A DNA stretch of 64,000 bases, from NCBI GenBank assembly GCA_028748975.1, contig JAQTPI010000003.1, forward strand, positions 33,064-97,063. The letters are read 5' to 3'. The notes beneath the pieces are model-generated. The model was given only the letters and a program-made list of their open reading frames with translations, did not search any database and was not told where the DNA came from. Origin of the DNA: Patescibacteria group bacterium (lineage in GTDB: Bacteria > Patescibacteriota > Patescibacteriia > UBA2196). Position 1 is the first letter of the stretch. The number at the start of each line of letters is the position of its first letter. The position numbers and the translations under genes are program-made. This document shows positions 7,149-25,410 of this stretch, one piece after another.

Positions 7149-7155
7149 ATTATTA

Positions 7156-7341
7156 TTATTTTATGGTTTTAAGTAAAGTAGAAATTTGCGCAATATTTTT
7201 CTTGGCAAAACGAAGTTCACGGATATTTTTAAGTTGGCGCTGAGCCACCTTAAAATTAAGCTCGCGTAATTTCTCCTGCTCGTTTTTTAACAGGGTTTTT
7301 AATTCGTTTTCAGATTTTATTTTTAATTCTTTAATTTTCAT
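7156..7341 (-). CDS. rpmC: Ribosomal protein L29
   Basis: 61-aa helical protein, MKIKELKIKSENELKTLLKNEQEKL…, located between L16 and S17. Confidence 0.85.
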   Translation of the reverse strand: MKIKELKIKSENELKTLLKNEQEKLRELNFKVAQRQLKNIRELRFAKKNIAQISTLLKTIK

Positions 7342-7431
7342 ATAATACGCTAATTAATTTGCGAATTTTTGCGAATGTGTTTGCGAATATTCGCATAGTT
7401 ATTCGCAAACATTCGCATATTTATTCGGGTG

Positions 7432-7845: not shown

Positions 7846-7989
7846 ACAAATAAACAAATTTTCACAGATAGAGCGCGGATTCTCACAGATACACAGATTG
7901 TCTCACCCCACTTCTCTTAATTAGGGGGATGAATAAATCTGTGTATCTGTGTTGATCTGTCTGGTATCTGTGTCTATTTGTTTTGTTTT

Positions 7990-8661: not shown

Positions 8662-8803
8662 AATAATATAAAACAAATTTTCACAGATAGAGCGCGGATT
8701 TTCACAGATACACAGATTGTTTCACCTTTATACTTCTCTATTAGAGATAAATAAATCTGTGTATCTGTGTTGATCTGTCTGGTATCTGTGTCTATTTGTT
8801 TGG

Positions 8804-9415
8804 TTAAACAGATTTCCGTCTAAATACCCTTTTTAATATTCCACCCTTGCTTTTTTTTCTGATCTTATCAAGGTGTTGTTTTTCGCGGTGCTTGCCTTCC
8901 ATGCGGATGTCTTCAATGTCTGGCTTATGTTCTTCCCCGGTAGTTGCTTCTTTCCCTTCCGAGTGAACGTTTTCTTCCACTTCTTCTTTGACCAATTTTT
9001 TAGCTTCATCCCAATCTTTAACTACTACTACGTCGTCCCCTTTTTCTTGTTTTTCCTTTTTTTCTTTTTTAACTTCTGTCACGGTTTTATCTTCCAAAAT
9101 TAAAGTGACATGAGTGGTAAATTTATGGATGGGGGTGGCGCGGCCCTGGGCGCGCGGCATCCAGCGTTTTAAAACAGAGCCCTTGTCAGCGCGAAATTCG
9201 GAAATTTCCAGATTTTCTTTTTTCAATTTAAAGTTGTTTTCCGCGTTGGCCACGGCGCTTTTTAATAATTTCAAAAGAGGCAAAGCTGATTTTTTCGGCA
9301 TAAACTGCAATTGTTCCATGGCTTTACTAACTGGCATTTTTTTAACAGCTTCAAGCACGACCCGGACTTTGCGGGGAGAGATGCGGAGATAATTAATTTT
9401 GGCTTGAATCTTCAT
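8804..9415 (-). CDS. rplV: Ribosomal protein L22 with a ~90-aa K/E-rich C-terminal extension
   Basis: MKIQAKINYLRISPRKVRVV…TTHVTLIL is the L22 core. It is followed by EDKTVTEVKKEKKEKQEKGDD… as a charged tail. Confidence 0.85.
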   Translation of the reverse strand: MKIQAKINYLRISPRKVRVVLEAVKKMPVSKAMEQLQFMPKKSALPLLKLLKSAVANAENNFKLKKENLEISEFRADKGSVLKRWMPRAQGRATPIHKFTTHVTLILEDKTVTEVKKEKKEKQEKGDDVVVVKDWDEAKKLVKEEVEENVHSEGKEATTGEEHKPDIEDIRMEGKHREKQHLDKIRKKSKGGILKRVFRRKSV

Positions 9416-9558
9416 AGAGATAAACAAATTTTCACAGATAGAGCGCGGATTTTCACAGATACACAGATTGTTTCACCTTTATACTTCTCTATTAGAGATA
9501 AATAAATCTGTGTATCTGTGTTGATCTGTCTGGTATCTGTGTCTATCTGTTTTGATTA

Positions 9559-9897
9559 TTATTTTTTCGCTGCTGGAGCAACCGGTGCTGCAGGTGTAGT
9601 AGCGGCCGAAGCAACAGCGCCTTGTTCAATTTCTTTCTGCATCTTGCCACCATGACGCACGAATTTTCTGGTCGGCGCGAATTCGCCAAGCTTATGGCCC
9701 ACCATATTTTCTACTACCGAGACGGTTAAGTGTGTCTTGCCATTATGCACGCCGAAAACAAAACCTACCATAGCCGGCGTAATGGTGCAAGCGCGCGACC
9801 AGGTCTTGATGACGGTTTTGTCGCCAATTCTAAGCTTGCCGACTTTTTTCAGTAAGCGTTCATCAACATATGGGCCTTTTTTAAGTGATCTACTCAT
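9559..9897 (-). CDS. rpsS: Ribosomal protein S19 with an Ala/Pro-rich tail
   Basis: [19 protein letters not shown]…[13 protein letters not shown]…, then …[15 protein letters not shown]. Confidence 0.9.
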
Positions 9898-9995
9898 AAT
9901 TTTATGCGAATTCTTGCGAATTTTGTGCGAATTTTGCGAACAGATAGTTTGGAGCTATTCGCATAATTCGCAGATAATTCGCTAATAATTCGTAT

Positions 9996-10826
9996 TTATT
10001 TCTTCCTTCTCTGCAAAATTAATTTATCCGTCCATTTCTTTTTTCTGGTCTGCACGCCCATGGCGTGTTTGCCCCAAAGGGTTTTGGCGTAAGGCATGCC
10101 GATCGGGTGTTTGCCTTCACCGCCGCCGTGTGGATGGTCCACCGGGTTCATGGCTTTACCGCGAACTGTCGGCTTGATGCCCATGTGGCGCTTGCGGCCG
10201 GCTTTACCCACGCGCACCAGCTTCGCTTCCAGATTGGAAACCTGGCCGATGCTCGCGAGACACTCTTTTCTGACTAAACGAATTTCACTGGAAGGCATTT
10301 TCAATTGCGCGTAATCACCTTCCATATTTTGTAAAATTAATCCGGTGCCGGCGCTGCGCGCGACTTTGCCGCCGCGAAGCGGTTCTAGTTCTATATTATA
10401 CACCATTTCACCTTGCATGACATATTGGAGCGGCAGGCGATTGCCTTTCTTCATATCAATTTTATTTTGGGAAGAAACAATTTTATCGCCGATTTTGGCG
10501 CCGTCCCAAGCCAAGATATAACTTTTCTCGCCGTCTTCATATTTAACGAGGGCGATTCTGGCATTTCGATTGGGATCATATTCAATAGCGATGACTTCAG
10601 CTGGAATATCAAATCTGGTTTGTTTGAAATCAACAAGACGATACATTTTTCTGGTACCGCCGCCGCGATGGCGCACGGTAATTTGCCCGGTGTTGTTGCG
10701 GCCAGAATGTTTCTTGGAAACCACGATTAAATTCTTCTCGGCCTTCTTTTTGGTCAAATCCAAAGAAGAGACCACGGTGGTGTGGCGTCGTCCGGAAGTT
10801 GTTGGTTTGTAGTATTTTATAGCCAT
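9996..10826 (-). CDS. rplB: Ribosomal protein L2
   Basis: MAIKYYKPTTSGRRHTTVV… and …HPHGGGEGK… are typical of L2. Confidence 0.9.
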   Translation of the reverse strand: MAIKYYKPTTSGRRHTTVVSSLDLTKKKAEKNLIVVSKKHSGRNNTGQITVRHRGGGTRKMYRLVDFKQTRFDIPAEVIAIEYDPNRNARIALVKYEDGEKSYILAWDGAKIGDKIVSSQNKIDMKKGNRLPLQYVMQGEMVYNIELEPLRGGKVARSAGTGLILQNMEGDYAQLKMPSSEIRLVRKECLASIGQVSNLEAKLVRVGKAGRKRHMGIKPTVRGKAMNPVDHPHGGGEGKHPIGMPYAKTLWGKHAMGVQTRKKKWTDKLILQRRKK

Positions 10827-10970
10827 AGAAAATAAACAAATTTTCACAGATAGAGCACGGATTTTCACAGATACACAGATCGGCTCACCATGATTTTCTC
10901 ACTACCAGAGAGATGAGCAAATCTGTGCATCTGTGTTAATCTGTTTTACATCTGTGTAAATCTGTCTTGC

Positions 10971-11402
10971 TTACACTCCCTCATAGATCGATATTTTATC
11001 ACCCATTTTTAATGTCACCACTGCTTTCTTCCAATTTTTCAGGTGTCCCACGGAACGGCCGGAACGGCTGGTTTTGCCTTTGACATTAACTATATTAATT
11101 TTAAGCGGTTTGACATTATAAGCGTGTTCAATGGCTTTTCTGACTTCGGATTTATTGGTGCGCGGCGAGACCTCAAAAAGATATTTGTTTTCCGCGCCGA
11201 TTAGAGCGCCTTTTTCCGTAACGAGCGGACGAATCAAAATTTGGTGCGCCATCAGATGGCCATATTTTTTTTCATGCTTATCTTTTTGTTCGCGATTGGC
11301 AATCACGCCAACTTTTTCTTCCTTTTTTTTATCAACTTCAACCACGCCTGCCGCGGCAGATTGCTTTTCTTCCTTTTTAGGTTTTTTGCTGAAAATGCTC
11401 AT
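10971..11402 (-). CDS. rplW: Ribosomal protein L23 with a K/E-rich N-terminal extension
   Basis: …HQILIRPLVTEKGALIGAENKYLFEVSPRTNKSEVRKAIEHAYNVKPLKINIV…. Confidence 0.85.
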   Translation of the reverse strand: MSIFSKKPKKEEKQSAAAGVVEVDKKKEEKVGVIANREQKDKHEKKYGHLMAHQILIRPLVTEKGALIGAENKYLFEVSPRTNKSEVRKAIEHAYNVKPLKINIVNVKGKTSRSGRSVGHLKNWKKAVVTLKMGDKISIYEGV

Positions 11403-11558
11403 AGAAACAGGTTTTCACAGATTTATTACAGATTTTCACAGATACACAGATAAGGCGATCTCATCCCCCTCTCCTTAATAAGGAGAGGGTTGGGGTGAGG
11501 TCGTAATATCTGTGTTTCTGTGTACTATCTGTCTGGCATCTGTGTCTATTTGTTTATT

Positions 11559-12305
11559 TTAATTTTTTAAATAAGTTTTCTCAATTACCGGCAAAGCTTC
11601 TTCGGAAATAATAATATTTTTATATTTAAGCAAATCCACCACATTCAAACTGTCAGCGGTAGTTATTTTCACGCCCGCCAGATTGCGGCCGGCGCGGAAA
11701 GTGTTTTTGTCCGATTTCGGAAGCACTACAAGTATAGATAATTTATATCTCTTAATATCAAATTTATTTCCAGTTTCCAGTTTCTGATCACTGGTTTCTG
11801 ATTTCTGATTTCCGGTTTCTGTTTTTTTGCTCTTTTTTATTTCTTTTAAAATCAAGATATTTTTGAAATTCTTCACTACCCCAACAAACTCTTTCGTCTT
11901 CCCTTCGGCCAAACTTAATTTATCAACCAAAAACATTAAACCATTATTAACTTTATCCGAAAGGCACATAAAGAGCGCTTTGGTTTTCATTTTCTTATTA
12001 ACTTTTTGGCTGAAATTCCGGTTACTGCGCGGGCCAAAAGTTACGCCGCCGCCTTTCCAAAGCGGAGAGCGGATGGAGCCATGGCGGGCGCGGCCGGTGC
12101 CTTTTTGTTTCCATGGTTTTCTGCCGCCGCCTCTGACTTCGCCTTTGGTTTTGGTGTGAGCAATCGCCACGCGAGCATTTGCCATTTGCGCCACCATCAC
12201 CTGGTGCACCACGCTTTCTTTTACTGCCACGCCAAACATTGCCGGATTCAATTCCGTTTCTTTAACTTTTTCAGCTTGTAAATTATAGACTGGTAACTTT
12301 TCCAT
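11559..12305 (-). CDS. rplD: Ribosomal protein L4 carrying a repeat-encoded insertion
   Basis: …GGGRKPWKQKGTGRARHGSIRSPLWKGGGVTFGP… is the L4 signature. The insert KKSKKTETGNQKSETSDQKLETGN is encoded by a gtttccagtttctgat… word repeat at ~11745-11830. Confidence 0.85.
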   Translation of the reverse strand: MEKLPVYNLQAEKVKETELNPAMFGVAVKESVVHQVMVAQMANARVAIAHTKTKGEVRGGGRKPWKQKGTGRARHGSIRSPLWKGGGVTFGPRSNRNFSQKVNKKMKTKALFMCLSDKVNNGLMFLVDKLSLAEGKTKEFVGVVKNFKNILILKEIKKSKKTETGNQKSETSDQKLETGNKFDIKRYKLSILVVLPKSDKNTFRAGRNLAGVKITTADSLNVVDLLKYKNIIISEEALPVIEKTYLKN

Positions 12306-12382
12306 AGATATTTTAGAAATTTGTTTTTATCGCGAGTTTACGCGACTGACTACGCTACTTTACGCGACACAGAAATTGATGC

Positions 12383-12411
12383 TTGACATAAATATTTTAA
12401 TTTGCTATACT
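12383..12411 (+). promoter_or_regulatory. Consensus sigma70 promoter (TTGACA-17-TATACT) antisense to the S10 operon
   Basis: TTGACA at 12383-12388, a 17-bp spacer, TATACT at 12406-12411. It is followed by AAAAGGAGAAAcc-ATG at 12466. Confidence 0.65.
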
Positions 12412-12465
12412 TGAATTACAAATAGTTTAGTTTAATTTGGGCTAACTCACACAAAAGGAGAAACC

Positions 12466-12693
12466 ATGAAAAAAAAGTATGCGAGGGTGTGTATTGTTTC
12501 TGTCGTACTCCCACTAATTGGTTTTTTGGGATTACTTCTGCTTCCTAAACAATCCACTATCACCACCACACCAAATGTTCTTGCTGCCATCTCTTTAGTT
12601 CTGATTGGACTTGGCGGCGGAATGTTTATTGGCGCTTACACTATGAACCCAATTCGCAGCATAGTCAAATTAATGATGAAGAAAAAAAGTTAA
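12466..12693 (+). CDS. Hypothetical 75-aa two-TM membrane protein (antisense cassette between rplD and rplC)
   Basis: Strong SD and promoter. Two hydrophobic helices (IVSVVLPLIGFLGLLLL and LAAISLVLIGLGGGMFIGAY). The terminator follows. Confidence 0.5.
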   Translation: MKKKYARVCIVSVVLPLIGFLGLLLLPKQSTITTTPNVLAAISLVLIGLGGGMFIGAYTMNPIRSIVKLMMKKKS

Positions 12694-12708
12694 ATGTTTC
12701 TATCTATA

Positions 12709-12734
12709 GGCAGATCACTAATCTGCCTTTTTTA
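12709..12734 (+). terminator. Rho-independent terminator
   Basis: ggcagatcactaatctgcc followed by TTTTTTATTTGCC. Confidence 0.55.
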
Positions 12735-12790
12735 TTTGCCAAATTTTGAAATGAGTTTTATTTTTATTACTCCTATTACTTTTAATACTT

Positions 12791-13588
12791 TTATTCCTGT
12801 TTTGTTTCTACTGGCGCTTCCACTTTTTCTTCCACGATCGGTGTTTCTTTTTTTTCTTCTACAGCCGGCACTGTTTCCTGTTTTCCGCTTTCCGATTTCT
12901 GATTTTCGGCTTCCTTGTCTCTTGTCTCTTGTCTCTTGTCGCTAATTTTCAACTCTCCTTCCCCCACAATTTCCACCAGCCCGCTTCTGGCTCCCGGCAC
13001 CGCGCCTTTGATATAGAGCAAATTATTTTCCAAATCAACTTTGACAATTTCCACATTTTTCACCGAGACCTGCTCATCGCCCATGTGGCCGGCCATTCTG
13101 CGTCCTTTGACCACGTGCTGGACGCCGCCGGCGCCGATGGAACCGGGCATTCTTTCCTGATCTTTATGGCCGTGGCTGGCCGGGTGGCCATGAAAATGAT
13201 GGCGGCGCACCACGCCCTGAAAGCCCTTGCCTTTGGAAGTGCCGGTAACTTTCACTTCATCGCCGACATTAAATGTTTCCGCGGTAATAATATTACCAAC
13301 TTCAATTCCCTGATTTCCGATTTCTGATTTCTGATTACTTTTATTTTTATCCCGAAATTCTCTTGAAAATCTAAAACTACCCAAGCTACCAAAATGTCCC
13401 TTTAATGCTTTAGAATTACTTTTTTTTTCGCCAAAACCAATCTGAACGGATTCATAGCCGTCTTGATCTTTTGACTTGACTTGCGTCACAACGCAGGGGC
13501 CGGCTTTGACAATTGTCGCCGGAACCACATTGCCCGCTTCGTCAAAAAGCTGAGTCATTTCAATTTTCTGGCCGAGGATGTATTTCAT
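12791..13588 (-). CDS. rplC: Ribosomal protein L3 with an internal repeat-encoded insert and an acidic C-terminal tail
   Basis: MKYILGQKIEMTQLFDEAGNVVPATIV… and …GKGFQGVVRRHHFHGHPASHG… are L3 motifs. NQKSEIGNQGIEVG and KRQETRDKEAENQKSESGKQE come from the ttctgatttc word repeat. Confidence 0.85.
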   Translation of the reverse strand: MKYILGQKIEMTQLFDEAGNVVPATIVKAGPCVVTQVKSKDQDGYESVQIGFGEKKSNSKALKGHFGSLGSFRFSREFRDKNKSNQKSEIGNQGIEVGNIITAETFNVGDEVKVTGTSKGKGFQGVVRRHHFHGHPASHGHKDQERMPGSIGAGGVQHVVKGRRMAGHMGDEQVSVKNVEIVKVDLENNLLYIKGAVPGARSGLVEIVGEGELKISDKRQETRDKEAENQKSESGKQETVPAVEEKKETPIVEEKVEAPVETKQE

Positions 13589-13740
13589 AGAGAAAACAGA
13601 TTTTCACAGATAGAGCACAAATTTTCACAGATACACAGATTTATTTTTCTTGTCATCCCCGTGCAAGCGGGGATCTAGAAATCTGTGTTTATTTGTGTAT
13701 CTGTGTGCTATCTGTTTTACATCTGTGGAGATCTGTTTTA
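13589..13740. repeat. Intergenic word-palindrome, CACAGAT family, with a GC hairpin core
   Basis: gattttcacagatagagcacaaattttcacagatacacagat…gtcatccccgtgcaagcggggatctag…atctgtgtgctatctgttttacatctgtggagatctg. Confidence 0.8.
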
Positions 13741-13954
13741 ATAAACAAAAACTGGTTCTTTCGAAACCAGCTCAAAACATTATCCAAACCTGCCAAAATT
13801 ACGACACCTAAATGTCGTGAATCTTACGGTTTAATTTTTAGATAATTTTCTAAACTGGTTTTCTTTGATCGCCAAAATGGTAATTACGAACTGTTCCTGC
13901 CTAATTAGCGGGCATCATTCGCGTTTACTTGGCAATAAGTTATCAAAAATAAAA

Positions 13955-14113
13955 TTATTTTTCGGTTTCTTCTTGTTTTTTATCTTGTTCGCCGCTTTCT
14001 TTACTACCAAAGGCTTTTTTTAGAGATTTAGAAAGTTTCTCTACTCCTTTGTTTAACATCTCTTCTGTTTTCTTACTACCTCGTTCAATTGCTTGTTGTG
14101 GGTTAAAATTCAT
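13955..14113 (-). CDS. Possible 52-aa hydrophilic micro-protein (MNFNPQQAIERGSKKTEEMLNKGVEKLSKSLKKAFGSKESGEQDKKQEETEK)
   Basis: Below the ORF-track size cut-off and found by hand translation. It sits in the 640-bp gap between rpsJ and rplC. No SD is obvious. Confidence 0.25.
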   Translation of the reverse strand: MNFNPQQAIERGSKKTEEMLNKGVEKLSKSLKKAFGSKESGEQDKKQEETEK

Positions 14114-14232
14114 AAAATATTTATTTTCTGGATTCCCTTTCTCAAGGGAATGACAGAAATTAAAATTTATTTACTGACGAGATCCCTCGGCTCCTAACTT
14201 CCCTATAAGGCCGCTCGGGATAAACTACCAAA

Positions 14233-14589
14233 CTACATTTTTATTTCTATATCAACACCTGACGGCAAATTCAAACTGGACAATTCTTCAATGGTTTTCG
14301 GGCGCGGATTGAAAATGTCAATCAAACGCTTATGCGTGCGGATTTCAAACTGCTCGCGAGCGTTTTTGTGGACAAAGGTGGAACGATTGACGGTATATTT
14401 GTCTTTTTCCGTGGGCAATGGCACCGGACCCTTGACGGTCGCTTGGGTGCGCAGGGCATTATCAATAATCGTGCGGCAGGCGTGGTCAATCAGCTTGTGA
14501 TCAAAAGAACGAACTTTGATTCTTAAGCGATGTTCCAGGGGCGCTTCCACTTTATCGGTATTTTCTTTTTTTGAAATTTTGTCAGACAT
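14233..14589 (-). CDS. rpsJ: Ribosomal protein S10
   Basis: …HRLRIKVRSFDHKLIDHACRTIIDNALRTQATVKGPVPLPTEK… is typical S10, with a short N-terminal extension. Confidence 0.9.
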   Translation of the reverse strand: MSDKISKKENTDKVEAPLEHRLRIKVRSFDHKLIDHACRTIIDNALRTQATVKGPVPLPTEKDKYTVNRSTFVHKNAREQFEIRTHKRLIDIFNPRPKTIEELSSLNLPSGVDIEIKM

Positions 14590-14599
14590 TTCTCTTTTT

Positions 14600-14760
14600 T
14601 TAAATTTTTAAGCTACGAATTTGTGTCGTTATCCCCTCCTTTCGAAGGAGGGGTGGCCGATAGCAATCGGTCGGGGTGGTTGTAATTTGTATTTTTTACA
14701 ACCCCTCTGCCCTCGACTGCTGTCGGGGCACCTCCCCTTCGAAAGGGGAGGATAACCACT
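14600..14760. repeat. Composite GC-rich palindromic element (CCCCTCCTTTCGAAGGAGGGG + GCCGATAGCAATCGG + …CCCCTTCGAAAGGGGAGG). Family copies are at 1795-1920, 17030-17170, 51705-51830 and 29560-29640.
   Basis: Perfect ttcgaa-centred palindromes, paired across a tggttgtaa…ttacaacc spacer. Confidence 0.8.
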
Positions 14761-14815
14761 TTTAGACACGCTTCAGTCCCCCGCCAAAGCGAGGAACTGC
14801 TTGTTTGTCTAAAAA

Positions 14816-16018
14816 TTACTTAATTATCTTCGTCACTGAACCAGCTCCCACGGTGTGGCCGCCTTCGCGGATGGCGAATTTGCCTTTTTCCTCCAAAGCG
14901 ACTGGGTGAATCAAAACAACTTTGATGGCTACGGTGTCGCCCGGCATCACCATTTCGGTGCCTTCTGGCAAAATGACTTCGCCAGTGACATCGGTGGTGC
15001 GGATATAAAATTGCGGCTTATAACCCTTCATAAAAGGAGTATGTCGGCCGCCTTCATCTTTGCTTAAAATGTAAACCTGGGCGTCAAATTCGGTATGCGG
15101 AGTGATGGAACCGGGTTTGGCAATGACTTGTCCGCGCATAACATCTTCTTTTTTGGTGCCGCGGATTAAAATTCCGGCGTTGTCGCCAGCTTGGCCTTTG
15201 TCCAAAGATTTCTTAAACATTTCAATGCCGGTGACCACGGTTTTTTGAGTGTCTTTCAAACCGACAATTTCCACTTCGTCATTTAAATTGACAATGCCGC
15301 GTTCAATTCTGCCAGTAACAACGGTGCCACGGCCTTCAATGGAGAAGACGTCTTCAATCGGCATCAGAAACGGCTTGTCAGTGTCGCGCACCGGAGTCGG
15401 CACATATTCATCAACTTTATTCATTAATTCCAAAACAGCTTTGTAGTTGGGATCTTCTTTATTACCGGCATTGGCCGCTTCCAAGGCTTTGAGAGCGGAA
15501 CCTTTGATAATTGGGGTGTCTTTGCCTGGAAATTCATATTTGGTAAGTAAATCGCGGACTTCTTCTTCCACCAAATTCACTAATTCCGGATCATCAACCT
15601 GATCGGTTTTATTCAAGAAAACAACAATGGCTGGCACACCCACTTGGCGGGCAAGCAAGATGTGTTCGCGGGTTTGAGGCATCGGGCCGTCAGCAGCGGA
15701 CACGACCAAAATCGCACCGTCCATCTGGGCGGCGCCGGTAATCATGTTCTTGATGTAGTCAGCGTGGCCGGGACAGTCAACGTGCGCGTAATGGCGCTTT
15801 TTGGTTTGATATTCCACGTGAGCGGTCGCAATGGTAATGCCGCGGGATTTGGATTCCGGAGCTTTATCCAGTTTTTCAATGTCGGCCTTGTCAGCTTTAT
15901 CGCCTTCGGCGTTAAGCACAGACAAAATAGCCGCGGTCAAGGTTGTCTTGCCGTGGTCGACGTGACCGATGGTACCGATGTTGACATGCGGTAAGGATCT
16001 GTCAAATTGTTCTGCCAT
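14816..16018 (-). CDS. tuf: Elongation factor Tu
   Basis: [22 protein letters not shown] and NKTD GTPase motifs in a 400-aa protein. Confidence 0.95.
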
Positions 16019-16124
16019 ATTTATTTTTTCACATTAGCAACACCCCTCTTATTTTAGCGGAGGTTTTGTGACCAGTTGCTAAAAATTAACTTTTATTGTT
16101 TAATATAGATTTTATACCCATTAC

Positions 16125-16160
16125 AGAGATCAGAGATAATTATAGACGATTATCAAAAGT
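16125..16160 (-). promoter_or_regulatory. Consensus promoter for tuf (TTGACA-17-TATAAT on the minus strand)
   Basis: The minus strand reads tTTGACAcacttttgataatcgtcTATAATtatc upstream of the tuf start. Confidence 0.55.
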
Positions 16161-16249
16161 GTGTCAAATTTAACCGGTAATCAGTAACTAGTAATCAGTA
16201 ATCAGGGTTTTACGACCCAGGTTTCTGATTTCTAATTTCTGCTTTCCTT

Positions 16250-16996
16250 TTATTCAATCGGTTCCACCAAAAATTCATCCACGTCTTTTTTTTCATCTTT
16301 TACTTCCCCATTCTCCGCGTCAGCTTCAATTATTGGCAAATCTTTATTTACTTCGGCTGGTTTTTCCGCTTCATAATTAACGTCGCCGACAGTTGTTTCA
16401 TTTAGCCACTCATCGTCCAGGGGTTCATCGTCTACTGGAAAAACCGATTCATCCGCTGTGATTGTTTTTTCTTTAAAAACATCGGGTAGATCTTTTTCCT
16501 CGTCCATCTTTAAATCTTTGTCCATAAAATCTTCTGGCCATTTGGGCGGAGTCCAACTTGCCTCGCCAAAAGGCGGGTTTTCATCATCATCGTCATCATC
16601 AGCCAAGGGGTCAAAAGTTTTTTTGCCGAAAATATCTTCCTCGCGATCGCCAAACAAATCTCGGTCATGATTAAAATCATGATTAAAATCAGTATTATTA
16701 TCAAACGGCAGACGCGGCATAAAATCTTCACCTAAATCACGGGGCGAGAAAAAATCCATGTCGGTGCCGAGTCCGATTTCGCGCTGGGCCTGTTTCCACA
16801 AAGAAATTTCGCGGTTGACGCGGTTTAAAATTTCTTCCTCGGTCATGCCGGCGTAATCGGTTTGGTCCGAAACCATTTCTTCATATTTTTCAAGTGGCAC
16901 AATGGCAAATGGTTCGCCAAATTCCGGCACGACAATCATCTTGTCGCCGGTGCGCTTGGCCAGGTCTATGATTTTTTCAAGTTGAGGGGAAAACAT
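16250..16996 (-). CDS. Highly acidic (D/E-rich) hypothetical protein between fusA and tuf
   Basis: 248 aa with DDDDDDENPPFGE and many DxxxD runs. No family recognised. Its location inside the str operon is atypical. Confidence 0.5.
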   Translation of the reverse strand: MFSPQLEKIIDLAKRTGDKMIVVPEFGEPFAIVPLEKYEEMVSDQTDYAGMTEEEILNRVNREISLWKQAQREIGLGTDMDFFSPRDLGEDFMPRLPFDNNTDFNHDFNHDRDLFGDREEDIFGKKTFDPLADDDDDDENPPFGEASWTPPKWPEDFMDKDLKMDEEKDLPDVFKEKTITADESVFPVDDEPLDDEWLNETTVGDVNYEAEKPAEVNKDLPIIEADAENGEVKDEKKDVDEFLVEPIE

Positions 16997-17230
16997 AATT
17001 CAAGTAAATGTCATTCCGAGTCCCGCATTTGCGGGGCGAGAAATCTCGTCGCTATCCTCCCCTTTCGAAGGGGAGGTGTCCCGCAGCAGCGGAACGGAGG
17101 GGTTGTAAAATATTCTACCACAACCACCCTGCTCGCTCTCGCTCGCACCCCTCCTTCGAAAGGAGGGGATAACGATTTTATTTTCTGTATTTATTATAGA
17201 ATTCCTATAAAAGAAGTCAAATAGAAATTC

Positions 17231-17259
17231 TTGACAAAATTTTATAGATTTGCTACAAT
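17231..17259 (+). promoter_or_regulatory. Consensus promoter TTGACA-17-TACAAT
   Basis: ttgacaaaattttatagatttgctacaat, then ataGGAGGatgcagccATG. Confidence 0.6.
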
Positions 17260-17315
17260 AGAAGTAATGGTCTAAACAAGATTAGATTTCTCATAATAAA
17301 TAGGAGGATGCAGCC

Positions 17316-17582
17316 ATGGCAAAGGAAAACGAAGTTTATATTATACAGAGGGGAATTAATCTTGAGGTGGCAGTTCCGGAAAAATATGCCTGGAATTTTA
17401 TGGAAAATTTCCGTCATGTATTTCCGCAAAAGAATTATCCAGAGAGCAGTATTTATTTAAAAGCATGCGAATCTGGTTATGTCATCAAAATAAGAATTCT
17501 CGATAAAGAAGAAAAAATTCTTAAATCTTTTCTGCGAGAATTCTGTGCGGAACGAAATCTTTCTTTTTATAAAACCAAATAA
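17316..17582 (+). CDS. Hypothetical 88-aa protein (antisense cassette)
   Basis: Strong SD and promoter. The terminator at ~17599-17630 (cggttcttaaccg + T-run) is followed by ATTTGTAAAAAAA. Confidence 0.45.
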   Translation: MAKENEVYIIQRGINLEVAVPEKYAWNFMENFRHVFPQKNYPESSIYLKACESGYVIKIRILDKEEKILKSFLREFCAERNLSFYKTK

Positions 17583-17648
17583 TCCAATTGCTTAATGTGG
17601 CCTTCGGTTCTTAACCGGAGGCTTTTTTTATTTGTAAAAAAATGAATC

Positions 17649-17676
17649 TTGACAAAATTTGTGGGTTTGCTAAAAT
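17649..17676 (+). promoter_or_regulatory. Near-consensus promoter TTGACA-16-TAAAAT
   Basis: ttgacaaaatttgtgggtttgctaaaat, then aaaaGGAGGaaaacttATG. Confidence 0.55.
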
Positions 17677-17738
17677 TTAGGCGTGGTTCTTTTGCTCACA
17701 ATAAATGACTAAAAAATCAGAAAAAAGGAGGAAAACTT

Positions 17739-18071
17739 ATGTCACAGCGGGCAGATTATGCGCAACAGCGGGCAGATTATGCACAGATGAGGGCAAAACT
17801 CAATGCCTTGGACACAACCGATCCGGTTTCCTGTACTATGAACATGTTAGGTATTATCAAAAGAACTCTTGAAGAAAAAGGGCCCATAATGGGTCTTCAT
17901 GACATGTTTGATTTTACACTTCAGGAAGCGGAACTGATTATAAAAGAAGCGGATGAATCCAAAGTCGGTCACGACAAAATGAAAAAAATACGGCTTGAGC
18001 TGCAAGAATATCGAAAAATCCTCAACGAATTGGATAGGGAAAGGGCTGTTCTCGAAGCTATTTTTAATTGA
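17739..18071 (+). CDS. Hypothetical 110-aa protein with a duplicated QRADYAQ N-terminal heptad and a coiled-coil C-terminus (antisense cassette)
   Basis: Strong SD. The terminator ccgtatggcacgccatgcgg + T-run at 18100-18127 is followed by ATTTGTCAAAAAA. Confidence 0.45.
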   Translation: MSQRADYAQQRADYAQMRAKLNALDTTDPVSCTMNMLGIIKRTLEEKGPIMGLHDMFDFTLQEAELIIKEADESKVGHDKMKKIRLELQEYRKILNELDRERAVLEAIFN

Positions 18072-18209
18072 GGTATTTTCCTCAACATCAAGGTCAGAAC
18101 CGTATGGCACGCCATGCGGTTTTTTATTTGTCAAAAAACTTTTACTTTTATTACTTCTATTACTTTTAATGCTTTTATTACTTATTCCCTATTCCCTAAT
18201 CCCTAATCA

Positions 18210-20300
18210 CTATTTTTTATCAACTAGTCCCTTCTTTTCAAGAATCTTCTCCACCACCATTTGCGGGGCGGGCTGATAATGCGAAAATTCCATGGTGAAA
18301 GAAGCGCGGCCTTGGGAGAGGGAGCGCACGGCGGTGGCGTAGCCAAACATGGAGGCCAGCGGCACTTCGCCATCAATAACTTTCATTTTGGCGCGGTCTT
18401 TCATTTCATGAATGACGGCACGGCGAGAGTTCAAATCGCCAATCACATCGCCCATATTTATTTCCGGCGTAACCACTTCAATTTTCATAATCGGCTCCAG
18501 TAAAACCGGCTTGGCGCGTCTGGCAGCTTCTTTAAAACCCAAAATACCCGCCATTTTAAACGCGGCTTCGGAAGAGTCAACTTCGTGGTAGGAACCATAA
18601 AACACGGCCACGGAAACATCCACCATGGGGTAGCCGGCGACGACGCCATTGCTCATGGCTTCAATCACGCCTTTTTCAATGGCCGGAATATATTCTTTGG
18701 GAATGATGCCGCCTTTGATTTCATCAATAAATTCAAAACCAGCGCCACGTTCGCGCGGAGAGACGCGCAATTCGCAGTGGCCATATTGGCCGCGGCCGCC
18801 GGACTGCTTGATATATTTGCCTTCGCCCTCAGCGGTGGCGGAAATTGTTTCTTTGTACGCCACCTGCGGGGCGCCGACATTGCATTCCACTTTAAATTCG
18901 CGTTTCATGCGCTCCACCATGACGTCAAGGTGAAGTTCGCCCATACCGGCGACAATTGTTTCCAAAGTTTCTTCGTCAGTGTGCGCTTTGAAAGTCGGAT
19001 CTTCTTTCATTAATTTTTGCAAAGCCATGCCCATTCTTTCCTGATCGCCTTTGGTTTTCGGCTCAATGGCAATCTGAATGACGGGGTCGGCAAATTTTAT
19101 TTTTTCCAAAATAATCGGGTGGTTTTCATCGCACATAGTGTCGCCGGTATTGGTGTCTTTCAGACCGACGGCCGCGGCGATTTCCCCGGAATAAACTTCA
19201 CTGACATCTTCTCTTTTATTGGCGTGCATGCGGACGATTCTGCCCAAACGTTCTTTTTGGCCATTAGAAGAATTCAAAACATAACTGCCGGCGGAAAGCG
19301 TGCCAGAATAAACGCGGAAAAAAGTTAAAGTGCCGACAAAGGGGTCGCTCGCAACCTTAAAAGCCAGCGCGGCAAAAGGCGCCGCGTCATCGGCCTTGCA
19401 TTCAATTCTTTTTTCTTCATTGCCCGGTTCAAAACCAGTAATGGGTGGCACGTCCAAAGGCGAGGGCAAATATTCCACGACGGCGTCCAACATTAATTGC
19501 ACGCCCTGATTGCTTAAAGCGTCGCCGCAGATGACGGGATAAAATTCACATTTGATAACCGCGGCGCGAATAGCGGCTTTGGCTTCGGAGACGGAAATTT
19601 CATGGCCGTTTAAAAATTTATCGGATAATTTATCATCGGTTTCCGCCACTTTTTCCATTAAAATTTCGCGGTATTTTTTGACATCTTCTTTCATTGTTTC
19701 GGGAATCGGAATTTCTACCACCTCCTCGCCGTTTTGTCCTTCAAATTTGTAGGCCTTTTCCGTGAGCAAATCAATAATTCCTTCAAAAGCGCTGTCCATG
19801 CCAATCGGGAGTTGGGCGGCCACGGCTTTGTCGCTCAATCTTTCTTTAATGGAATTCAAAGACATGTAAAAATCCGCGCCCAATTTTTTCATTTTATTGA
19901 TGTAACAAATGCGCGGGACGCCATATTTTTCCGCCTGATGCCAGACGGTTTCCGATTGCGGTTCCACGCCTTGAGAGCCATCGAAAACAGCCACGGCGCC
20001 GTCAAGGACGCGCAAAGATCTTTCCACTTCCACGGTGAAATCCACATGGCCAGGAGTATCAATAATATTAATGCGGTGGTCTTTCCAAAAACAAGTGGTA
20101 GCGGCGGAAGTGATCGTGATGCCGCGCTCTTTTTCCTGATCCATCCAGTCCATTTCAGCCGCGCCTTCGTGCACCTCGCCGATTTTGTGTTTTTTGCCGG
20201 TGTAAAACAAAATCCGCTCGGTAGTGGTCGTCTTACCGGCGTCAATGTGGGCCATGATGCCAATGTTTCTGGTGTTTTCGAGGGAATATTCTCGGGGCAT
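18210..20300 (-). CDS. fusA: Elongation factor G
   Basis: [26 protein letters not shown] and full EF-G domains. The start is trimmed to [14 protein letters not shown] because the ORF N-terminus runs into a GC-hairpin. Confidence 0.93.
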
Positions 20301-20635
20301 AGTTTTGATGGTGTCATCCTGAGGAGCGAGAGCGACGAAGGATCTCGTAATAAAAGTATCCGTCATCCCGAGGCCCGATAGCAATCGGGCCGATGGGATC
20401 TTGTAGCTATTGCCAGGATTTTAATTTTTAATTTCTAATTTCCAGTTTCCTAAAAAACCAAAAATCAGAAATCATTTATAATCATACACTAATTTTAAGA
20501 GAAAATAAAGGGGGGTCAAGGTACGGCCCCCTTTTTGCATACGATAAATATTTGTTTGTTTTTATCGCTTGAGAACTTGGAACTTAAGGGAAAGGGAGGC
20601 CGAGTTGGGGCCCTCTCTTTTGTGTCTAACAAATT

Positions 20636-20950
20636 TTATTTTTTATCCACAAATCCCAAAAATCTTGATGTAAAAAAACGAAATTCAAAACAAGAAAGCA
20701 TATTTTTTCCACGGCCCTCAACAATAAATAATGTCTTTTCGTCATGACTTCTGTTCGGTGCCCTGATACCCGTAACCAACATGATACCGCTTTCTCCGGA
20801 AGCTACACCACCGAAACGAACCTTTCTACCAACCCAGCTTTGTGCCATTTCAAAAAGTTTTTTGCGGGTCAAATCCCAATCAAAAAACTTTTCTTTTCTT
20901 TTACGGATAACGGCCAACAATTCATTTAAAATCCTTTCCACTACGCCCAA
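20636..20950 (-). CDS. Hypothetical 104-aa protein in a ~0.9-kb insertion between rpsG and fusA
   Basis: ORF only. No motif recognised. It is flanked by GC hairpins. Confidence 0.3.
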   Translation of the reverse strand: MGVVERILNELLAVIRKRKEKFFDWDLTRKKLFEMAQSWVGRKVRFGGVASGESGIMLVTGIRAPNRSHDEKTLFIVEGRGKNMLSCFEFRFFTSRFLGFVDKK

Positions 20951-21212
20951 TTCTCTGTACCCGGTTTCAATACTTATAAAAATTTCTTCAAAACTGCGAC
21001 CTTTTTCAGCATAAAGCCGAATGTCGTTGTTGTCTTGTTTCGTTTTTTCCTCCTTGCCCCGAGTTTATTGCGGGGGCTGTGTTTGGTTGTAATTTTTTTA
21101 TCATTCCCACGCAAGTGAAAATCCAATTTTCTGGATTCCCGCCTGCGCGGGAATGACATGGTTGCGGCTATTCGCAAATTTATTCGCAAACATTCGCAAA
21201 CATATTCGCGTG

Positions 21213-21686
21213 CTACCCGAAACGCGCAAAGTGCGCGAAGGCTTTGTTGGCGTCGGCCATGCGGTGCACGTCTTCTTTCTTTTTGACAGCCGGGCCTTCG
21301 CCTTTGGCCGAGTCCATTAAAACACTGGCTAATTTTTCCGCCATGGGCTTGCCTTTTATTTTTCTTGACGCATCCAAAATCCAGCGAGTGGCGAGTGTCA
21401 AACGGCGTTCGTCACGCACTGGAAACGGCACCTGATAGTTGGCGCCGCCGACGCGTTTGCCGCGAACTTCCACCGATGGCCCAACTTTTTTCATGGCCTG
21501 GTCAAAAGTTTGCAAAGGGTCTTTTTGGGTTTTTTCTTTAATAATAGCAAAAGCGCCATAGACGATTTTTTGCGCCACAGTTTTTTTGCCGCGTTGCATA
21601 ATATAATTGATGAACTTACCGATGTCCGCGCGGTTATATTTCGGATCGGGATTGATTTTTCTTTTAGGAGCTGGTTTGCCACGCAT
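21213..21686 (-). CDS. rpsG: Ribosomal protein S7
   Basis: MRGKPAPKRKINPDPKYN…KKTVAQKIVYGAF… is typical S7. Confidence 0.9.
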   Translation of the reverse strand: MRGKPAPKRKINPDPKYNRADIGKFINYIMQRGKKTVAQKIVYGAFAIIKEKTQKDPLQTFDQAMKKVGPSVEVRGKRVGGANYQVPFPVRDERRLTLATRWILDASRKIKGKPMAEKLASVLMDSAKGEGPAVKKKEDVHRMADANKAFAHFARFG

Positions 21687-21804
21687 ATTATTTCAGAACT
21701 CAAAACTCAATTAACAAAACTCAAGACGGCCGTTTCCTTAATTCTTACTTTTAAATTCTTAATTCTCTTCCTTGTTTTTTGTTTATTGTGTTTTGTGTTT
21801 TTAT

Positions 21805-22224
21805 TTATTTTTTCCCTCGTTTAGTGCCATAAAGCGACCGCCCGCGCTTTCTGTTTTCCACACCCACGGTGTCGTATCGGCCGCGGACGATGTGATAACG
21901 GACGCCGGGCAAATCTTTCACACGGCCGCCGCGAATCATGACGATGGAGTGTTCCTGCAAATTATGGCCTTCGCCCGGAATGTAGGCGGTAACTTCTTCA
22001 CCGTTGGACAATCTGACTCTGGCCACTTTGCGCAAAGCCGAGTTTGGTTTTTTGGGAGTTCTGGTGGTAACTTTGGTGCAGACGCCGCGCTTAAAAGGGC
22101 TGCCTTTGGGCAATTCGCTTTTTTGTCTTTTGATTACATCCAAAACCGAAGACAAAGCCGGAGTCTTGGACTTGGCTTTTTTTGATTTTCTCGGTCGTTT
22201 GATGAGCTGATTAATTGTTGGCAT
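21805..22224 (-). CDS. rpsL: Ribosomal protein S12
   Basis: [16 protein letters not shown]…[16 protein letters not shown]…. It is the first gene of the str operon. Confidence 0.9.
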
Positions 22225-22329
22225 AACTTGTGTTTTCTCCCCTCCTTTTCAAGAGGGGGTCCGCCAGCTGGCGGAGGGGTGGTTATTTATTTCGCCGATA
22301 GGCGCATATTATTACTTAATCCATTATAC

Positions 22330-22358
22330 CTATATAAAAAAATCTTGTCAAATGAAAT
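22330..22358 (-). promoter_or_regulatory. Consensus promoter for the rpsL operon, preceded by a terminator hairpin
   Basis: The minus strand reads gcagggcctaaaaaccctgc-TTTTTTATTTCAT-TTGACA-agatttttttatatagg-TATAAT. Confidence 0.6.
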
Positions 22359-22401
22359 AAAAAAGCAGGGTTTTTAGGCCCTGCGGAGATTGGTGTATTT
22401 T

Positions 22402-22875
22402 TTATAGTTCCAGTGAAATTTTTTCAATTTCTTGGAACAACACGAGCGCCTTGACTTCCGGTTCTTTAATTGGCGGCGCGACCTCAAAAACTTTTACTTC
22501 CACCTGTTTTGCTTCTTCCACTTCATCTTTATATACCCCCGGGTAAATTCTTGCTCGATGACATAAACTCAAACAACGATAAGATTCATAACTACCCCAA
22601 TCAAAAGAAAATTTGATACCCAAATCTTCCATTTTTTCATTAATCGGTGTGGGGTGTCCGGAACTTACCATTTGATGAACGGTATATCCAACTTCAATTT
22701 CCCGATCTTTAGAAACCGTGCTGATAAACACCAGTTTAACACCCTTGGTTAAATTTTCTGAATTTTCCAAAACAAATAGCATGGCCTTCTTGCCAAAATC
22801 GCTCACGTATTTTTGGTTGGACGAAATGATAATTTTCCTCAATTCCGCCATTTGCTCCACGGTTGCCGGTTTCAC
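22402..22875 (-). CDS. Hypothetical protein, paralog 1 of a tandem pair (probable GTG start overlapping the upstream stop)
   Basis: VKPATVEQMAELRKIIISS…GKKAMLFVLENSEN… shares ordered similarity with the upstream gene. GTG/TGA overlap suggests translational coupling. Confidence 0.5.
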   Translation of the reverse strand: MKPATVEQMAELRKIIISSNQKYVSDFGKKAMLFVLENSENLTKGVKLVFISTVSKDREIEVGYTVHQMVSSGHPTPINEKMEDLGIKFSFDWGSYESYRCLSLCHRARIYPGVYKDEVEEAKQVEVKVFEVAPPIKEPEVKALVLFQEIEKISLEL

Positions 22876-23297
22876 CCCTTTCCTCCTTTTTTGGTTTTTG
22901 ATTGACATAAGGAAATTTTTTGAATATCAGCCGGCTTTGCTTCTAAGATCATCTCTTTGGAGACGCTATAAGAACCACTATAAAAGGATTTCTTACTGAT
23001 AAGCGCGCAAAAATAGTGATTGGGAATTCCACCACCCCTATCAAAACGTAAGTTAATTTTCATTCGCTCCGAAAAACGATCCAGGTTTATACTTCTCCGA
23101 CTACTACATATATCGTGAATTGTGCGAGCACCTTCTCGCCCCAACTTTGATCTCAAATATAAAACCACTTCTCTTGTTCCTTGTTTTGAATGTTCCAACA
23201 AATAAAGCATAACTTTCTTACCAAGCTCCGTACCCTGCGGCGCTTCTATAATTTTTTGGCGCAAGGCTACCATTTGCACTGTGGTCAGCGGCTTCAT
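22872..23297 (-). CDS. Hypothetical protein, paralog 2 of a tandem pair
   Basis: MKPLTTVQMVALRQKIIEAPQGTELGKKVMLYLLEHSKQGT… is preceded by AAAAGGAGG and by the hairpin-TTTTTTATTTCATTTGACA module. Confidence 0.5.
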   Translation of the reverse strand: MKPLTTVQMVALRQKIIEAPQGTELGKKVMLYLLEHSKQGTREVVLYLRSKLGREGARTIHDICSSRRSINLDRFSERMKINLRFDRGGGIPNHYFCALISKKSFYSGSYSVSKEMILEAKPADIQKISLCQSKTKKGGKG

Positions 23298-23454
23298 TTT
23301 TTTTCTTTGCACTCTTCCTCCTTTTATCGCCTGTGGCGATTGAGTTATGAAAAAACGTTTTCTTCTTATTTCTAACCTAGCATGAATAAAAAATCATGTC
23401 AAATGAAATAAAAAACCGGCGGAAGCTGGTTCCAGGCCGGTTCGGTATGTGGAG

Positions 23455-23718
23455 TCAAATGCCGCCAAGGTGTTTTCCTATTTTTTTTGGCGGTATGCCA
23501 AAATTTTGGAAAAAAGTAAGGGCTTCTCTTTTTATCTTTCTTTCTTCTTCAACTGAAAGAGTGGCTTTTCCTTTCTCTTCTTTAGCTGAAAGGGGTTCAG
23601 GAGGATAATCAGCACCCTCGTCCTCATAATAGCCGTCGGTAAAGACACCTACTTCTCCCAAAATTCTGGTTTGCAAAAGAAAGCTTAAAAAATTGTTTTT
23701 GAGCCGTCGCCAACACAT
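23455..23718 (-). CDS. Hypothetical 87-aa protein
   Basis: ORF only. Confidence 0.3.
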   Translation of the reverse strand: MCWRRLKNNFLSFLLQTRILGEVGVFTDGYYEDEGADYPPEPLSAKEEKGKATLSVEEERKIKREALTFFQNFGIPPKKIGKHLGGI

Positions 23719-24404: not shown

Positions 24405-24578
24405 AAATCCCTATTTACGTCATTCCGAGGTCCGATAGCAATCGGACCGATGGAATCTTTAATCGCAAAGATCCCATCGCTCAAAGCGACCATAGAGGTC
24501 GCTCGGGATGACGACATTTTTAAAATTTGACACCAAATTAATAAACTGCTACTATTATGGTAATTAAAATAAAATATT

Positions 24579-24937: not shown

Positions 24938-25410
24938 AGAAAATTATTTTTGGTCTTCCCTTATTACTTATTACTAGTTACTTATTACCCATTATATTAA
25001 CACGAGATCCTTCGTCCTCTCCGCCAGCTGGCGGATCGTCCTCAGGATGACACTCTTTTGGAGAACAAAAAGGGGTTATTAGGCAGCTTAATCTAATTCC
25101 CTAAAAGTCAGATGAACCGCGCCGATGACAGTGTGTTTTTCTTACTGCCAAAGACGAACTGAATTCTTGGCCTAAAAACCAACACGGAGTCGGTTTTCGG
25201 CTAATTTCAGCCAAAACGGCCTCGGGAATCCTTGACCGCAAACCCACGGGCTGGCGATATGCAGATTCCACAATTTGCTGTTGTAGAAATTAGAAAACTG
25301 GCCTGTAACCCCAAGGTCATTATAGCATATTAGCATAGAGCATAAAAACATAAAAATACAAATCATACCTCTCTCCTTTTATAAATAAAAAAGGCGAGAT
25401 TATTTCTCGC

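Follow-up and report, generated by a model that had tools for sequence, protein, structure and literature searches.

The window analysed here, a stretch of 64,000 nucleotides (64 kb) from a metagenome-assembled genome (MAG) of the Patescibacteria (candidate phyla radiation, CPR), carries a fused str/S10 operon on its minus strand. Three gaps interrupt this operon, between rpsG and fusA, between fusA and tuf and between rpsJ and rplC. They are likely to combine old, clade-wide elements with strain-specific filler, within an operon of separately controlled units in which the leader RNA of rplC acts as an attenuator and the product of a gene between fusA and tuf (hereafter X) as a regulator. The elements in question are gene X, an RNA motif in the 5′ untranslated region (5′ UTR) of tuf and the leader RNA in the rpsJ–rplC gap. 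They are missing from Rfam 15 and, as such, from Pfam, and no description of them was found in the searchable literature. Annotation pipelines call X ‘hypothetical’ and overlook both RNAs.

The str/S10 cluster serves as a universal marker, and it is generally taken to be invariant. CPR bacteria combine small genomes with reduced ribosomes, and few of their regulators are known. In this phylum-level radiation the cluster has three extra conserved elements (a gene between fusA and tuf, a tuf 5′-UTR motif and an rpsJ–rplC leader), and the findings suggest that Patescibacteria control their translation genes in their own way. If functional, the elements offer testable handles on how CPR bacteria balance the synthesis of EF-Tu and of ribosomal proteins.

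Operon layout

The genes and gaps are listed in minus-strand order, in which X lies between fusA and tuf, and rplD, rplW and rplB follow rplC.

21805–22224, minus strand: rpsL
21213–21686, minus strand: rpsG
20301–21212: rpsG–fusA gap, 912 bp
18210–20300, minus strand: fusA
16019–18209: fusA–tuf gap, 2191 bp
14816–16018, minus strand: tuf
14233–14589, minus strand: rpsJ
13589–14232: rpsJ–rplC gap, 644 bp
12791–13588, minus strand: rplC

The open reading frame (ORF) of fusA extends up to a TTG at 20384; its true start is the ATG at 20300. Scans of the window placed no tRNA and no Rfam family inside the three gaps, and the Rfam 15 gathering threshold was passed in the window by four tRNAs only. 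The original prediction, made from this sequence alone, had pointed out all three large gaps and their ORFs of 52, 248 (X) and 104 aa, together with two plus-strand ORFs in the fusA–tuf gap; every one of these was found. Loci of relatives compared with the window are labelled L001–L012 and onward.

Gene X and its place in the operon

16250–16996, minus strand: gene X (NCBI PHT40_01650), acidic protein of 248 aa

In each of the 12 close loci (L001–L012, on every contig that could be inspected), X is flanked by fusA and tuf. The arrangement is compact in L010 and L011, where X follows fusA by 39 bp, and the distant locus L007 also reads fusA–X–tuf. A synteny scan limited to one genome per species yielded 212 genomes in which a relative was present. 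Among the best 80 of these, which were examined and all come from Patescibacteria lineages, X directly precedes tuf and follows fusA in 77, and the start of X precedes that of tuf by a median of 570 nt (range 430–1248). No toxin gene is found beside X; the downstream gene is tuf, both in the window and in the 77 genomes. Given the conserved fusA–X–tuf position and no adjacent toxin, X is an ancestral, clade-specific member of the str operon, neither an insertion nor a canonical toxin–antitoxin module. The three exceptions were checked and represent a subfamily of X ending in HIPPPPSR, located between a PAS sensor histidine kinase and thrS, which adjoin it, and likewise without a toxin neighbour. 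This subfamily also carries a RINNFGY[AP]NP motif (L026:5992–6630 and L043:4312–4983).

These data bear on the view, taken in the original prediction, that the gaps are three non-canonical insertions. The layout is indeed unlike that of model bacteria and parts of each gap are strain-specific. For the core of two gaps, however, the insertion view does not survive comparison with relatives, which have orthologous gaps: dozens of genomes have orthologues of X, of the tuf motif and of the rplC leader at the same positions. We therefore consider it extremely unlikely that the gaps arose by recent insertion of foreign or mobile DNA, X included, into an otherwise canonical operon. The codon usage of X is native, and searches of the gap ORFs against PHROGs and PADLOC, and of the two plus-strand ORFs against phage sequences, found no integrase, transposase or phage similarity. 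Foreign insertion would fit the antisense cassettes, the 52-aa and 104-aa ORFs and the repeats described below, all of which are strain-specific, and the highly variable spacer between fusA and X.

X is strongly acidic (73 Asp + Glu against 26 Lys + Arg, pI 4.05) and has a coding score of 0.10 bits/nt, similar to that of ribosomal proteins. It has 14 close homologues. The relatives are 59–72% identical in X, which speaks against their being the same strain. The alignment of the homologues divides the protein into a conserved N-terminus (residues ~1–45, a probable Phd/YefM-type domain), an invariant helix (residues 53–73, MTEEEILNRVNREISLWKQAQRE), a variable, acidic, disordered tail and the invariant C-terminus DEFLVEPIE. 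When 1.84 billion representatives were searched with a profile, the family grew to 815 clusters at E ≤ 1e-3. Its members are mostly 100–140 aa long and share profile positions ~3–72; longer members carry the additional tail motifs YE[DN][IV]PPPP and P[VI]ID[ML]SF, and the C-terminal end reads [FY]x[VE]EP[IV][EY] throughout.

The acidic protein had been thought to have no recognisable family. This holds for the window protein taken alone, which has no Pfam match at E ≤ 1, but it is wrong at the family level. PF02604 (PhdYeFM_antitox) is matched by 27 of 34 family members (best E 1.7e-8), and three homologues (P0162, P0068 and P0160) carry it as a precomputed annotation. AlphaFold2 (AF2) modelled the N-terminal 80 aa with a mean confidence (pLDDT) of 77 as an alpha-beta-beta-alpha arrangement plus a long helix (helix 4–16, strands 20–22 and 30–32, helix 35–43). 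The best matches of this N-terminus among Protein Data Bank (PDB) structures, located with Foldseek, were Phd (3hs2, 4zm2) and YefM (2a6q, 6l8e). Alignment with hhalign also placed the X family in register with YefM and Phd, whose sequences were entered by hand. In the full-length AF2 model (pLDDT 55) the tail is predicted to be disordered, and this model was thus left out of the fold search. A PDB sequence search with the family profile returned only a carboxylesterase, which was rejected as a chance match.

On sequence grounds, the N-terminus of X appears homologous at the family level to the Phd/YefM-type DNA-binding antitoxin domain, and X is probably derived from a Phd/YefM antitoxin. Its predicted alpha-beta-beta-alpha N-terminus and predicted disordered C-terminus resemble those of the antitoxins. 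Unlike the antitoxins, X has no cognate toxin gene, is followed by tuf and keeps a fixed place in the str operon across the phylum; its family also has the extra invariant helix (53–73), an acidic tail of 40–250 aa with linear motifs and the invariant C-terminal peptide. In the reading we favour, X would be a domesticated, antitoxin-type, dimeric DNA-binding regulator of the adjacent tuf promoter, of its own promoter or of both, with the acidic tail docking on a partner via the C-terminal peptide. No conserved operator palindrome for X was identified.

Two other roles for X have to be weighed. X may be a working type II antitoxin with its toxin encoded elsewhere, for example one of Doc/Fic type; the Doc/Fic-type toxin of phage P1 targets EF-Tu. 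Membership of PF02604 at the family level and a C-terminus disordered as in Phd/YefM are consistent with such a role. We nevertheless hold it to be very unlikely, as tuf lies downstream in 77 of the 80 genomes, the subfamily outside the operon also lacks a toxin, the tail is 2–4 times longer than those of antitoxins, and vertical conservation at one locus is unlike the behaviour of mobile toxin–antitoxin modules.

The second role is that of an adaptor that binds no DNA and acts on translation factors or the ribosome, its C-terminal peptide docking on EF-Tu, EF-G or the ribosome in the manner of a stalk protein. Stalk proteins (bL12 in bacteria, P1/P2 in archaea and eukaryotes) join a small oligomerisation domain at the N-terminus, through a flexible acidic linker, to a conserved C-terminal element by which translational GTPases are recruited. 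X may be likened to them in design and, as they are, is encoded among translation genes; its overall architecture, invariant C-terminus and conserved short tail motifs, and its strict genomic linkage to tuf, would all suit an adaptor. X has, however, no similarity to bL12 or P1/P2 in sequence or predicted fold, and its N-terminus appears homologous to a DNA-binding domain. An adaptor of this kind is a real possibility, if an unlikely one.

The tuf promoter and 5′-UTR motif

16139–16167, minus strand: tuf promoter, perfect TTGACA-17-TATAAT
16032–16084, minus strand: tuf 5′-UTR RNA motif, 53 nt, ending 14 nt before the tuf ATG

Over the 154 nt that precede tuf (16019–16172), identity to L001–L006 is 90%, whereas the X proteins of these loci are only 59% identical to that of the window. 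The RNA motif within this segment consists of a helix P1 (UUAGCAAC/GUUGCUAA in the window), a bulge on the 5′ side (UGG-UCACAAAA) and a hairpin P2 (CCUCC...GAGGGG). Its general form is P1, the 5′-side bulge YUGG-N1-3-(AC)AAA(A) and a P2 hairpin CCNN...NNGG stacked on the 3′ strand of P1. In a plain MAFFT alignment comprising 37 sequences, paired cells make up 82.7%, against 40–49% in slid controls, and both sides of a pair have changed in 104 cells, against 13–38; the seeds had been picked for P1 complementarity, 49 of 59 distinct upstream regions passing. The six inner pairs of P1 form in all 37 sequences and show as many as six pair types.

A covariance model of the motif (R2) gave 49 matches in 952 kb searched on both strands. 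All lie directly upstream of tuf, 10 of them in loci outside the seed, and none elsewhere in the 952 kb. When 12000–23500 was scanned with Rfam 15, nothing overlapped 16032–16084 at E ≤ 5. The folding energy of the tuf 5′ UTR is indistinguishable from that of shuffled sequences (z = -0.78); our case for the motif relies on covariation and positional specificity. The tuf 5′ UTR carries a covarying P1/bulge/P2 RNA motif, as judged from the alignment, that is found only there and may have a regulatory role.

An invariant UGG and the variable base after it sit in a bulge that separates two helices near the ribosome-binding region. This arrangement recalls the T-box discriminator, whose UGGN bulge pairs with the 3′-NCCA end of tRNA. 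The likeness may be one of analogy: unlike a T-box, the tuf motif is ~50 nt long and has no Stem I, no specifier, no T-box sequence and no Rfam T-box match. One could go further and assemble X, the tuf promoter and the tuf leader into a Patescibacteria-specific EF-Tu feedback module built from a domesticated toxin–antitoxin part. A dimer of X would sit on the promoter of tuf or of X with its tail on free EF-Tu or on the ribosomal GTPase centre, EF-Tu would serve as a ‘toxin’-like co-repressor, and the UGGN bulge would read the 3′-CCA ends of tRNA. We regard this scheme as a long shot. If true, the module and the rplC attenuator would amount to lineage-specific regulation of translation in a phylum that holds a large share of bacterial diversity.

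Four tandem TGATTAC-type heptamers (16176–16205, minus strand) abut the -35 box of tuf on its upstream side. They are absent from the segment conserved with L001, which begins at the -35 box, and an inverted copy is located at 24958–24998, near tRNA-Pro.

The rplC leader RNA

13741–13944, minus strand: rplC leader RNA, ~200 nt, delimited by nhmmer/BLAST conservation, RNAalifold and model R1
13869–13936, minus strand: 5′ domain with P1 (ATTGCC/GGCGAT), P1b, P2, internal loop UGAUG/AACAG and P3
13839–13861 paired with 13764–13787, minus strand: antiterminator helix, 22 bp, enclosing P4
13801–13819, minus strand: P4 hairpin
13749–13773 plus U-run, minus strand: intrinsic terminator, its 5′ arm being the 3′ strand of the antiterminator helix

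The spacer between rpsJ and rplC is never short; in 63 Patescibacteria loci it has a minimum of 173, a median of 294 and a maximum of 982 nt. The ‘about 200 bp of unassigned sequence’ reported for this gap proves to be a conserved, structured RNA. The segment is 80% identical to L010 and 72% identical to L012, where it fills nearly the whole spacer. A conserved micro-ORF was also sought in 70 such spacers; no family was present in more than five loci, and those were closely related, hence our preference for an RNA.

The leader of the window has a minimum free energy of -60.1 kcal/mol (z = -5.2). Its single-sequence fold shows the same helices as RNAalifold, which gives the long antiterminator helix unprompted. 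Both sides have changed in 27 of 46 pairs, against 5–10 in slid controls, in an alignment of ten distinct sequences that was fitted to the structure by the model and is biased toward it. In this alignment 84.5% of cells are paired (32–50% in slid controls; a value reached by 0 of 500 shuffles), and the terminator is 96% paired. The internal loop UGAUG/AACAG is invariant and the P3 hairpin variable. Model R1 scores the window at 187 bits and 12 other loci at 35–192 bits, with weak matches in ~12 further loci, nearly all within rpsJ–rplC spacers and on the operon strand. A terminator-like hairpin is present in at least 40 of 70 rpsJ–rplC spacers, against 7 of 71 tuf–rpsJ spacers. The Rfam 15 scan of 12000–23500 placed nothing over 13741–13944 at E ≤ 5.

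The antiterminator and the terminator share a strand and are mutually exclusive. In L007 the upstream strand covaries with both arms of the terminator. On sequence evidence, the rplC leader has the anatomy of a transcription attenuator. By analogy, it may be under feedback control by a ribosomal protein encoded downstream: that protein, most likely uL4 or uL3, would bind the 5′ domain, and its binding would disfavour the antiterminator so that the terminator forms.

The RNA might instead be a plain terminator of the tuf–rpsJ unit with a structured spacer, or an independent small RNA gene. The terminator is strong, and neither an rplC promoter nor a ligand was identified; moreover, archaea group S10 with EF-1α and keep the L3 cluster as a separate unit. 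The 22-bp antiterminator that shares the 5′ arm of the terminator, together with the covariation in L007, is hard to account for unless the RNA is a switch, and the conserved 5′ domain with its invariant internal loop points to specific recognition. On its own strand the RNA has no promoter-like site ahead of it. Either version of this alternative is, in our estimate, rather unlikely.

The closest known parallel in the S10 cluster is the Escherichia coli S10 leader, likewise a structured RNA with an intrinsic terminator gating ribosomal-protein genes, rplC and rplD among them. It mediates attenuation by L4 as well as translational control, precedes rpsJ and occurs in Gammaproteobacteria only (PMC3616713). 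The rplC leader differs in that it follows rpsJ, is unrelated in sequence and structure, and has an explicit long antiterminator helix. At the E. coli-type position, upstream of rpsJ and overlapping its start codon, the tuf–rpsJ gap of the window holds a family-B palindrome (see below) only.

We note that at least three other types of 5′ domain occur in the same spacer of other Patescibacteria lineages (L016, L017, L029, L037, L039, L062, L066 and L073), each with a stem, an asymmetric internal loop and a hairpin, then a terminator. The variety of 5′ domains and the retained terminator suggest that the sensor has been exchanged repeatedly while the attenuator was kept. A pattern scan of metagenomes for further copies of the leader gave 18 matches; two are real and duplicate L010 and L013, and the rest are chance matches in GC-rich DNA. 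A reading as K-turn or boxA found no support on inspection by eye, there being no CUGA/GA tandem in register and no GCUCUUUAACAA-like box.

A proposed model of separate transcription units

Taken together, the promoters and the leader would divide the operon into separate units: rpsL–rpsG, fusA and X, each behind its own promoter; tuf–rpsJ behind the tuf promoter and leader; and rplC onward behind the attenuator. We propose that the boundaries of such units tolerate insertions, and that orphan cassettes and palindromes resembling miniature inverted-repeat transposable elements (MITEs) or repetitive extragenic palindromes (REPs) therefore accumulate there.

Several points weigh against this model. 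The ligands suggested for both RNAs and for X are put forward by analogy. The window X itself lacks a Pfam match, its Foldseek matches to Phd/YefM have probabilities of 0.7–0.87 but E values of 0.4–0.9, and hhalign against the hand-entered YefM gave E 4.4e-4 at a probability of 33%. As a subfamily of X lives outside the str operon, linkage to tuf is not absolute. To these may be added the selection of the tuf seeds, the unremarkable folding energy of the tuf 5′ UTR, the bias of the leader alignment and the different 5′ domains that other Patescibacteria lineages have in the rpsJ–rplC spacer. Finally, the 104-aa ORF in the rpsG–fusA gap may not be a gene, because it has no Shine–Dalgarno (SD) site, starts with TTG and has a borderline coding score.

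Strain-specific content of the gaps

The antisense cassettes, the 52-aa and 104-aa ORFs and the palindromes are without counterpart in the closest relatives, and in this respect the comparison bears out the original prediction. The remaining features of the fusA–tuf gap are as follows.

17231–17623, plus strand: antisense cassette 1, with promoter 17231–17259, AGGAGG SD site and terminator 17599–17623
17316–17582, plus strand: as88, 88-aa ORF of cassette 1 (PHT40_01655)
17649–18123, plus strand: antisense cassette 2, with promoter 17649–17676, AGGAGG SD site and terminator 18096–18123
17739–18071, plus strand: as110, 110-aa ORF of cassette 2 (PHT40_01660)
17193–17220, minus strand: X promoter-like site, TTGACT-16-TATAAT (11/12), back to back with the as88 promoter
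17048–17179, minus strand: family-B palindromic repeat, 132 nt, hairpins CCCCTCCTTTCGAAGGAGGGG, in the inferred X 5′ UTR
18125–18209, minus strand: 7-mer and 9-mer tandem repeats (families D2, D10 and D11) directly after the fusA stop

The inferred X 5′ UTR also contains a smaller hairpin repeat. Both as88 and as110 are annotated as hypothetical, and each forms a cluster of one. They have no homologue in the relatives (tblastn), Pfam, PHROGs or PADLOC, and a tblastn search of 50,697 phage records gave no match, so that a phage or plasmid origin of the cassettes is unsupported. Relatives have other ORFs at the fusA–X junction, mostly small membrane proteins unrelated to one another; antisense orientation is the commoner (23 against 13). 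The distance from fusA to X ranges from 14 to 5358 nt and is bimodal, at most 120 bp in 20 of 65 loci and more than 300 bp in 36. Across the phylum, the fusA–X junction is a hotspot at which insertions recur. As an insertion-tolerant site it could serve engineering as CPR genetics matures.

A fourth cassette of the same kind is found in the rplC–rplD gap (12383–12728, plus strand), just beyond the region covered by the original prediction. It has a promoter at 12383–12411 (plus strand), an AAGGAG SD site, a 75-aa ORF predicted to encode a membrane protein (12466–12693, plus strand, PHT40_01625) and a terminator at 12708–12728.

The rpsG–fusA gap contains the following.

20636–20950, minus strand: orf104, 104-aa orphan ORF (NCBI PHT40_01670, called there as 101 aa)
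20492–20519, minus strand: fusA promoter-like site (10/12)
20419–20496, minus strand: conserved 78-nt fusA 5′ region with a AAATTAGAAATTAA motif
20361–20402, no strand assigned: family-C small palindromic repeat (D15, 90% identity), with a second copy at 24418–24459
21134–21157, no strand assigned: small hairpin repeat GTCATTCCCGCGCAGGCGGGAATC, beside TTTGCGAA direct repeats just after the rpsG stop

In relatives this gap has a median of 107 nt and reaches 1064 nt, with different content in each. The coding score of orf104 is -0.05. A search among 5.8 billion clusters returned only orf104 itself, and it belongs to no family in Pfam, PHROGs or PADLOC, in keeping with its description as an orphan. 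The fusA 5′ region is 96% identical to L001/2/5/6 and 91% identical to L012, and in many loci fusA is preceded by a similar A/T-periodic motif. A search for a common structured motif at this site found only an A/T-periodic, AAATTAGAAATT-like sequence and variable content. Apart from orf104 and the conserved fusA promoter region, the gap of the window consists of repeats.

The strain-specific stretch of the rpsJ–rplC gap, 13963–14232, holds small hairpin repeats and the 52-aa ORF.

13955–14113, minus strand: orf52, 52-aa orphan ORF (PHT40_01635), preceded by a small hairpin repeat at 14131–14154
13592–13751, no strand assigned: family-A palindromic spacer repeat (TTTTCACAGATA...TATCTGTGAAAA), between the leader terminator and the rplC ATG

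orf52 has a coding score of +0.04 in frame 0, forms a cluster of one and lacks an SD site. It has no tblastn match in the relatives and is absent from the spacers of L010 and L012, which align only to 13737–13962. A match to PHROG 154 (E 0.008) was disregarded as lysine/glutamate-rich low complexity.

The four gap ORFs (52, 88, 104 and 110 aa) could conceivably be no genes at all, the gaps having grown as non-coding DNA by proliferation of repeats. All four are orphans, their coding scores fall between those of genes and spurious ORFs, and orf104 and orf52 lack SD sites. However, as88, as110 and the 75-aa ORF of the fourth cassette each have an 11/12 promoter, a well-spaced AGGAGG-type SD site and a strong terminator, and for as88, as110 and orf52 frame 0 has a clearly higher score than frames 1 and 2. 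Non-coding expansion is possible, and on balance we think it unlikely.

Repeats and genome context

Three families of imperfect palindromes (A, B and C; 40–160 nt) are scattered in the intergenic DNA of the window. Family B has 11 hairpin copies against 0 expected, family A 14 half-sites against 0.01 expected and the small hairpin repeat 3 copies against 0.07 expected. Like REP and MITE repeats, families A, B and C occur as many dispersed palindromic intergenic copies far above chance; unlike them, family A is concentrated in the spacers of ribosomal-protein genes, abutting start codons. The genome is loosely packed (~81% coding, median intergenic distance 120 bp) and the palindromes are dispersed, so that accretion of repeats and orphans is genome-wide. 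Within the operon it concentrates at the boundaries of transcription units.

Family A (3537–13751) occupies most ribosomal-protein gene spacers, next to start codons without SD sites. Related copies sit at equivalent sites in relatives (L015:8976–9114 and L002:2313–2447), and family A may for this reason be a processing or translation signal and not pure filler. The hairpins of family B pair an anti-SD-like CCUCCUU with an SD-like AAGGAGG. They are located at 1835–1889, 14633–14751, 17056–17168, 22235–22263, 29598, 44982, 51738–51795 and 63906; a second copy of the repeat spans 14625–14759 in the tuf–rpsJ gap, and one partial copy sits between the promoter of rpsL and its ATG.

Upstream of the rpsL promoter, a region often occupied by rpoB/rpoC in other bacteria, two overlapping orphan ORFs (22402–22908 and 22872–23312, minus strand; 168 and 146 aa) are paralogous, with 32% identity, and match no family.

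Runs of the heptamer GAAATCA (TTTCTGA on the plus strand) occur both in coding and in non-coding DNA. The non-coding runs follow X (16222–16248) and lie upstream of fusA (20425–20451). The coding runs (11774–11842, 12854–12922 and 13293–13347) lie inside surface-loop insertions of rplC and rplD and encode NQKSEIGNQ-type peptides, and the L3 protein of L002 has GNQKSEIRNQ at the site of the rplC insertion.

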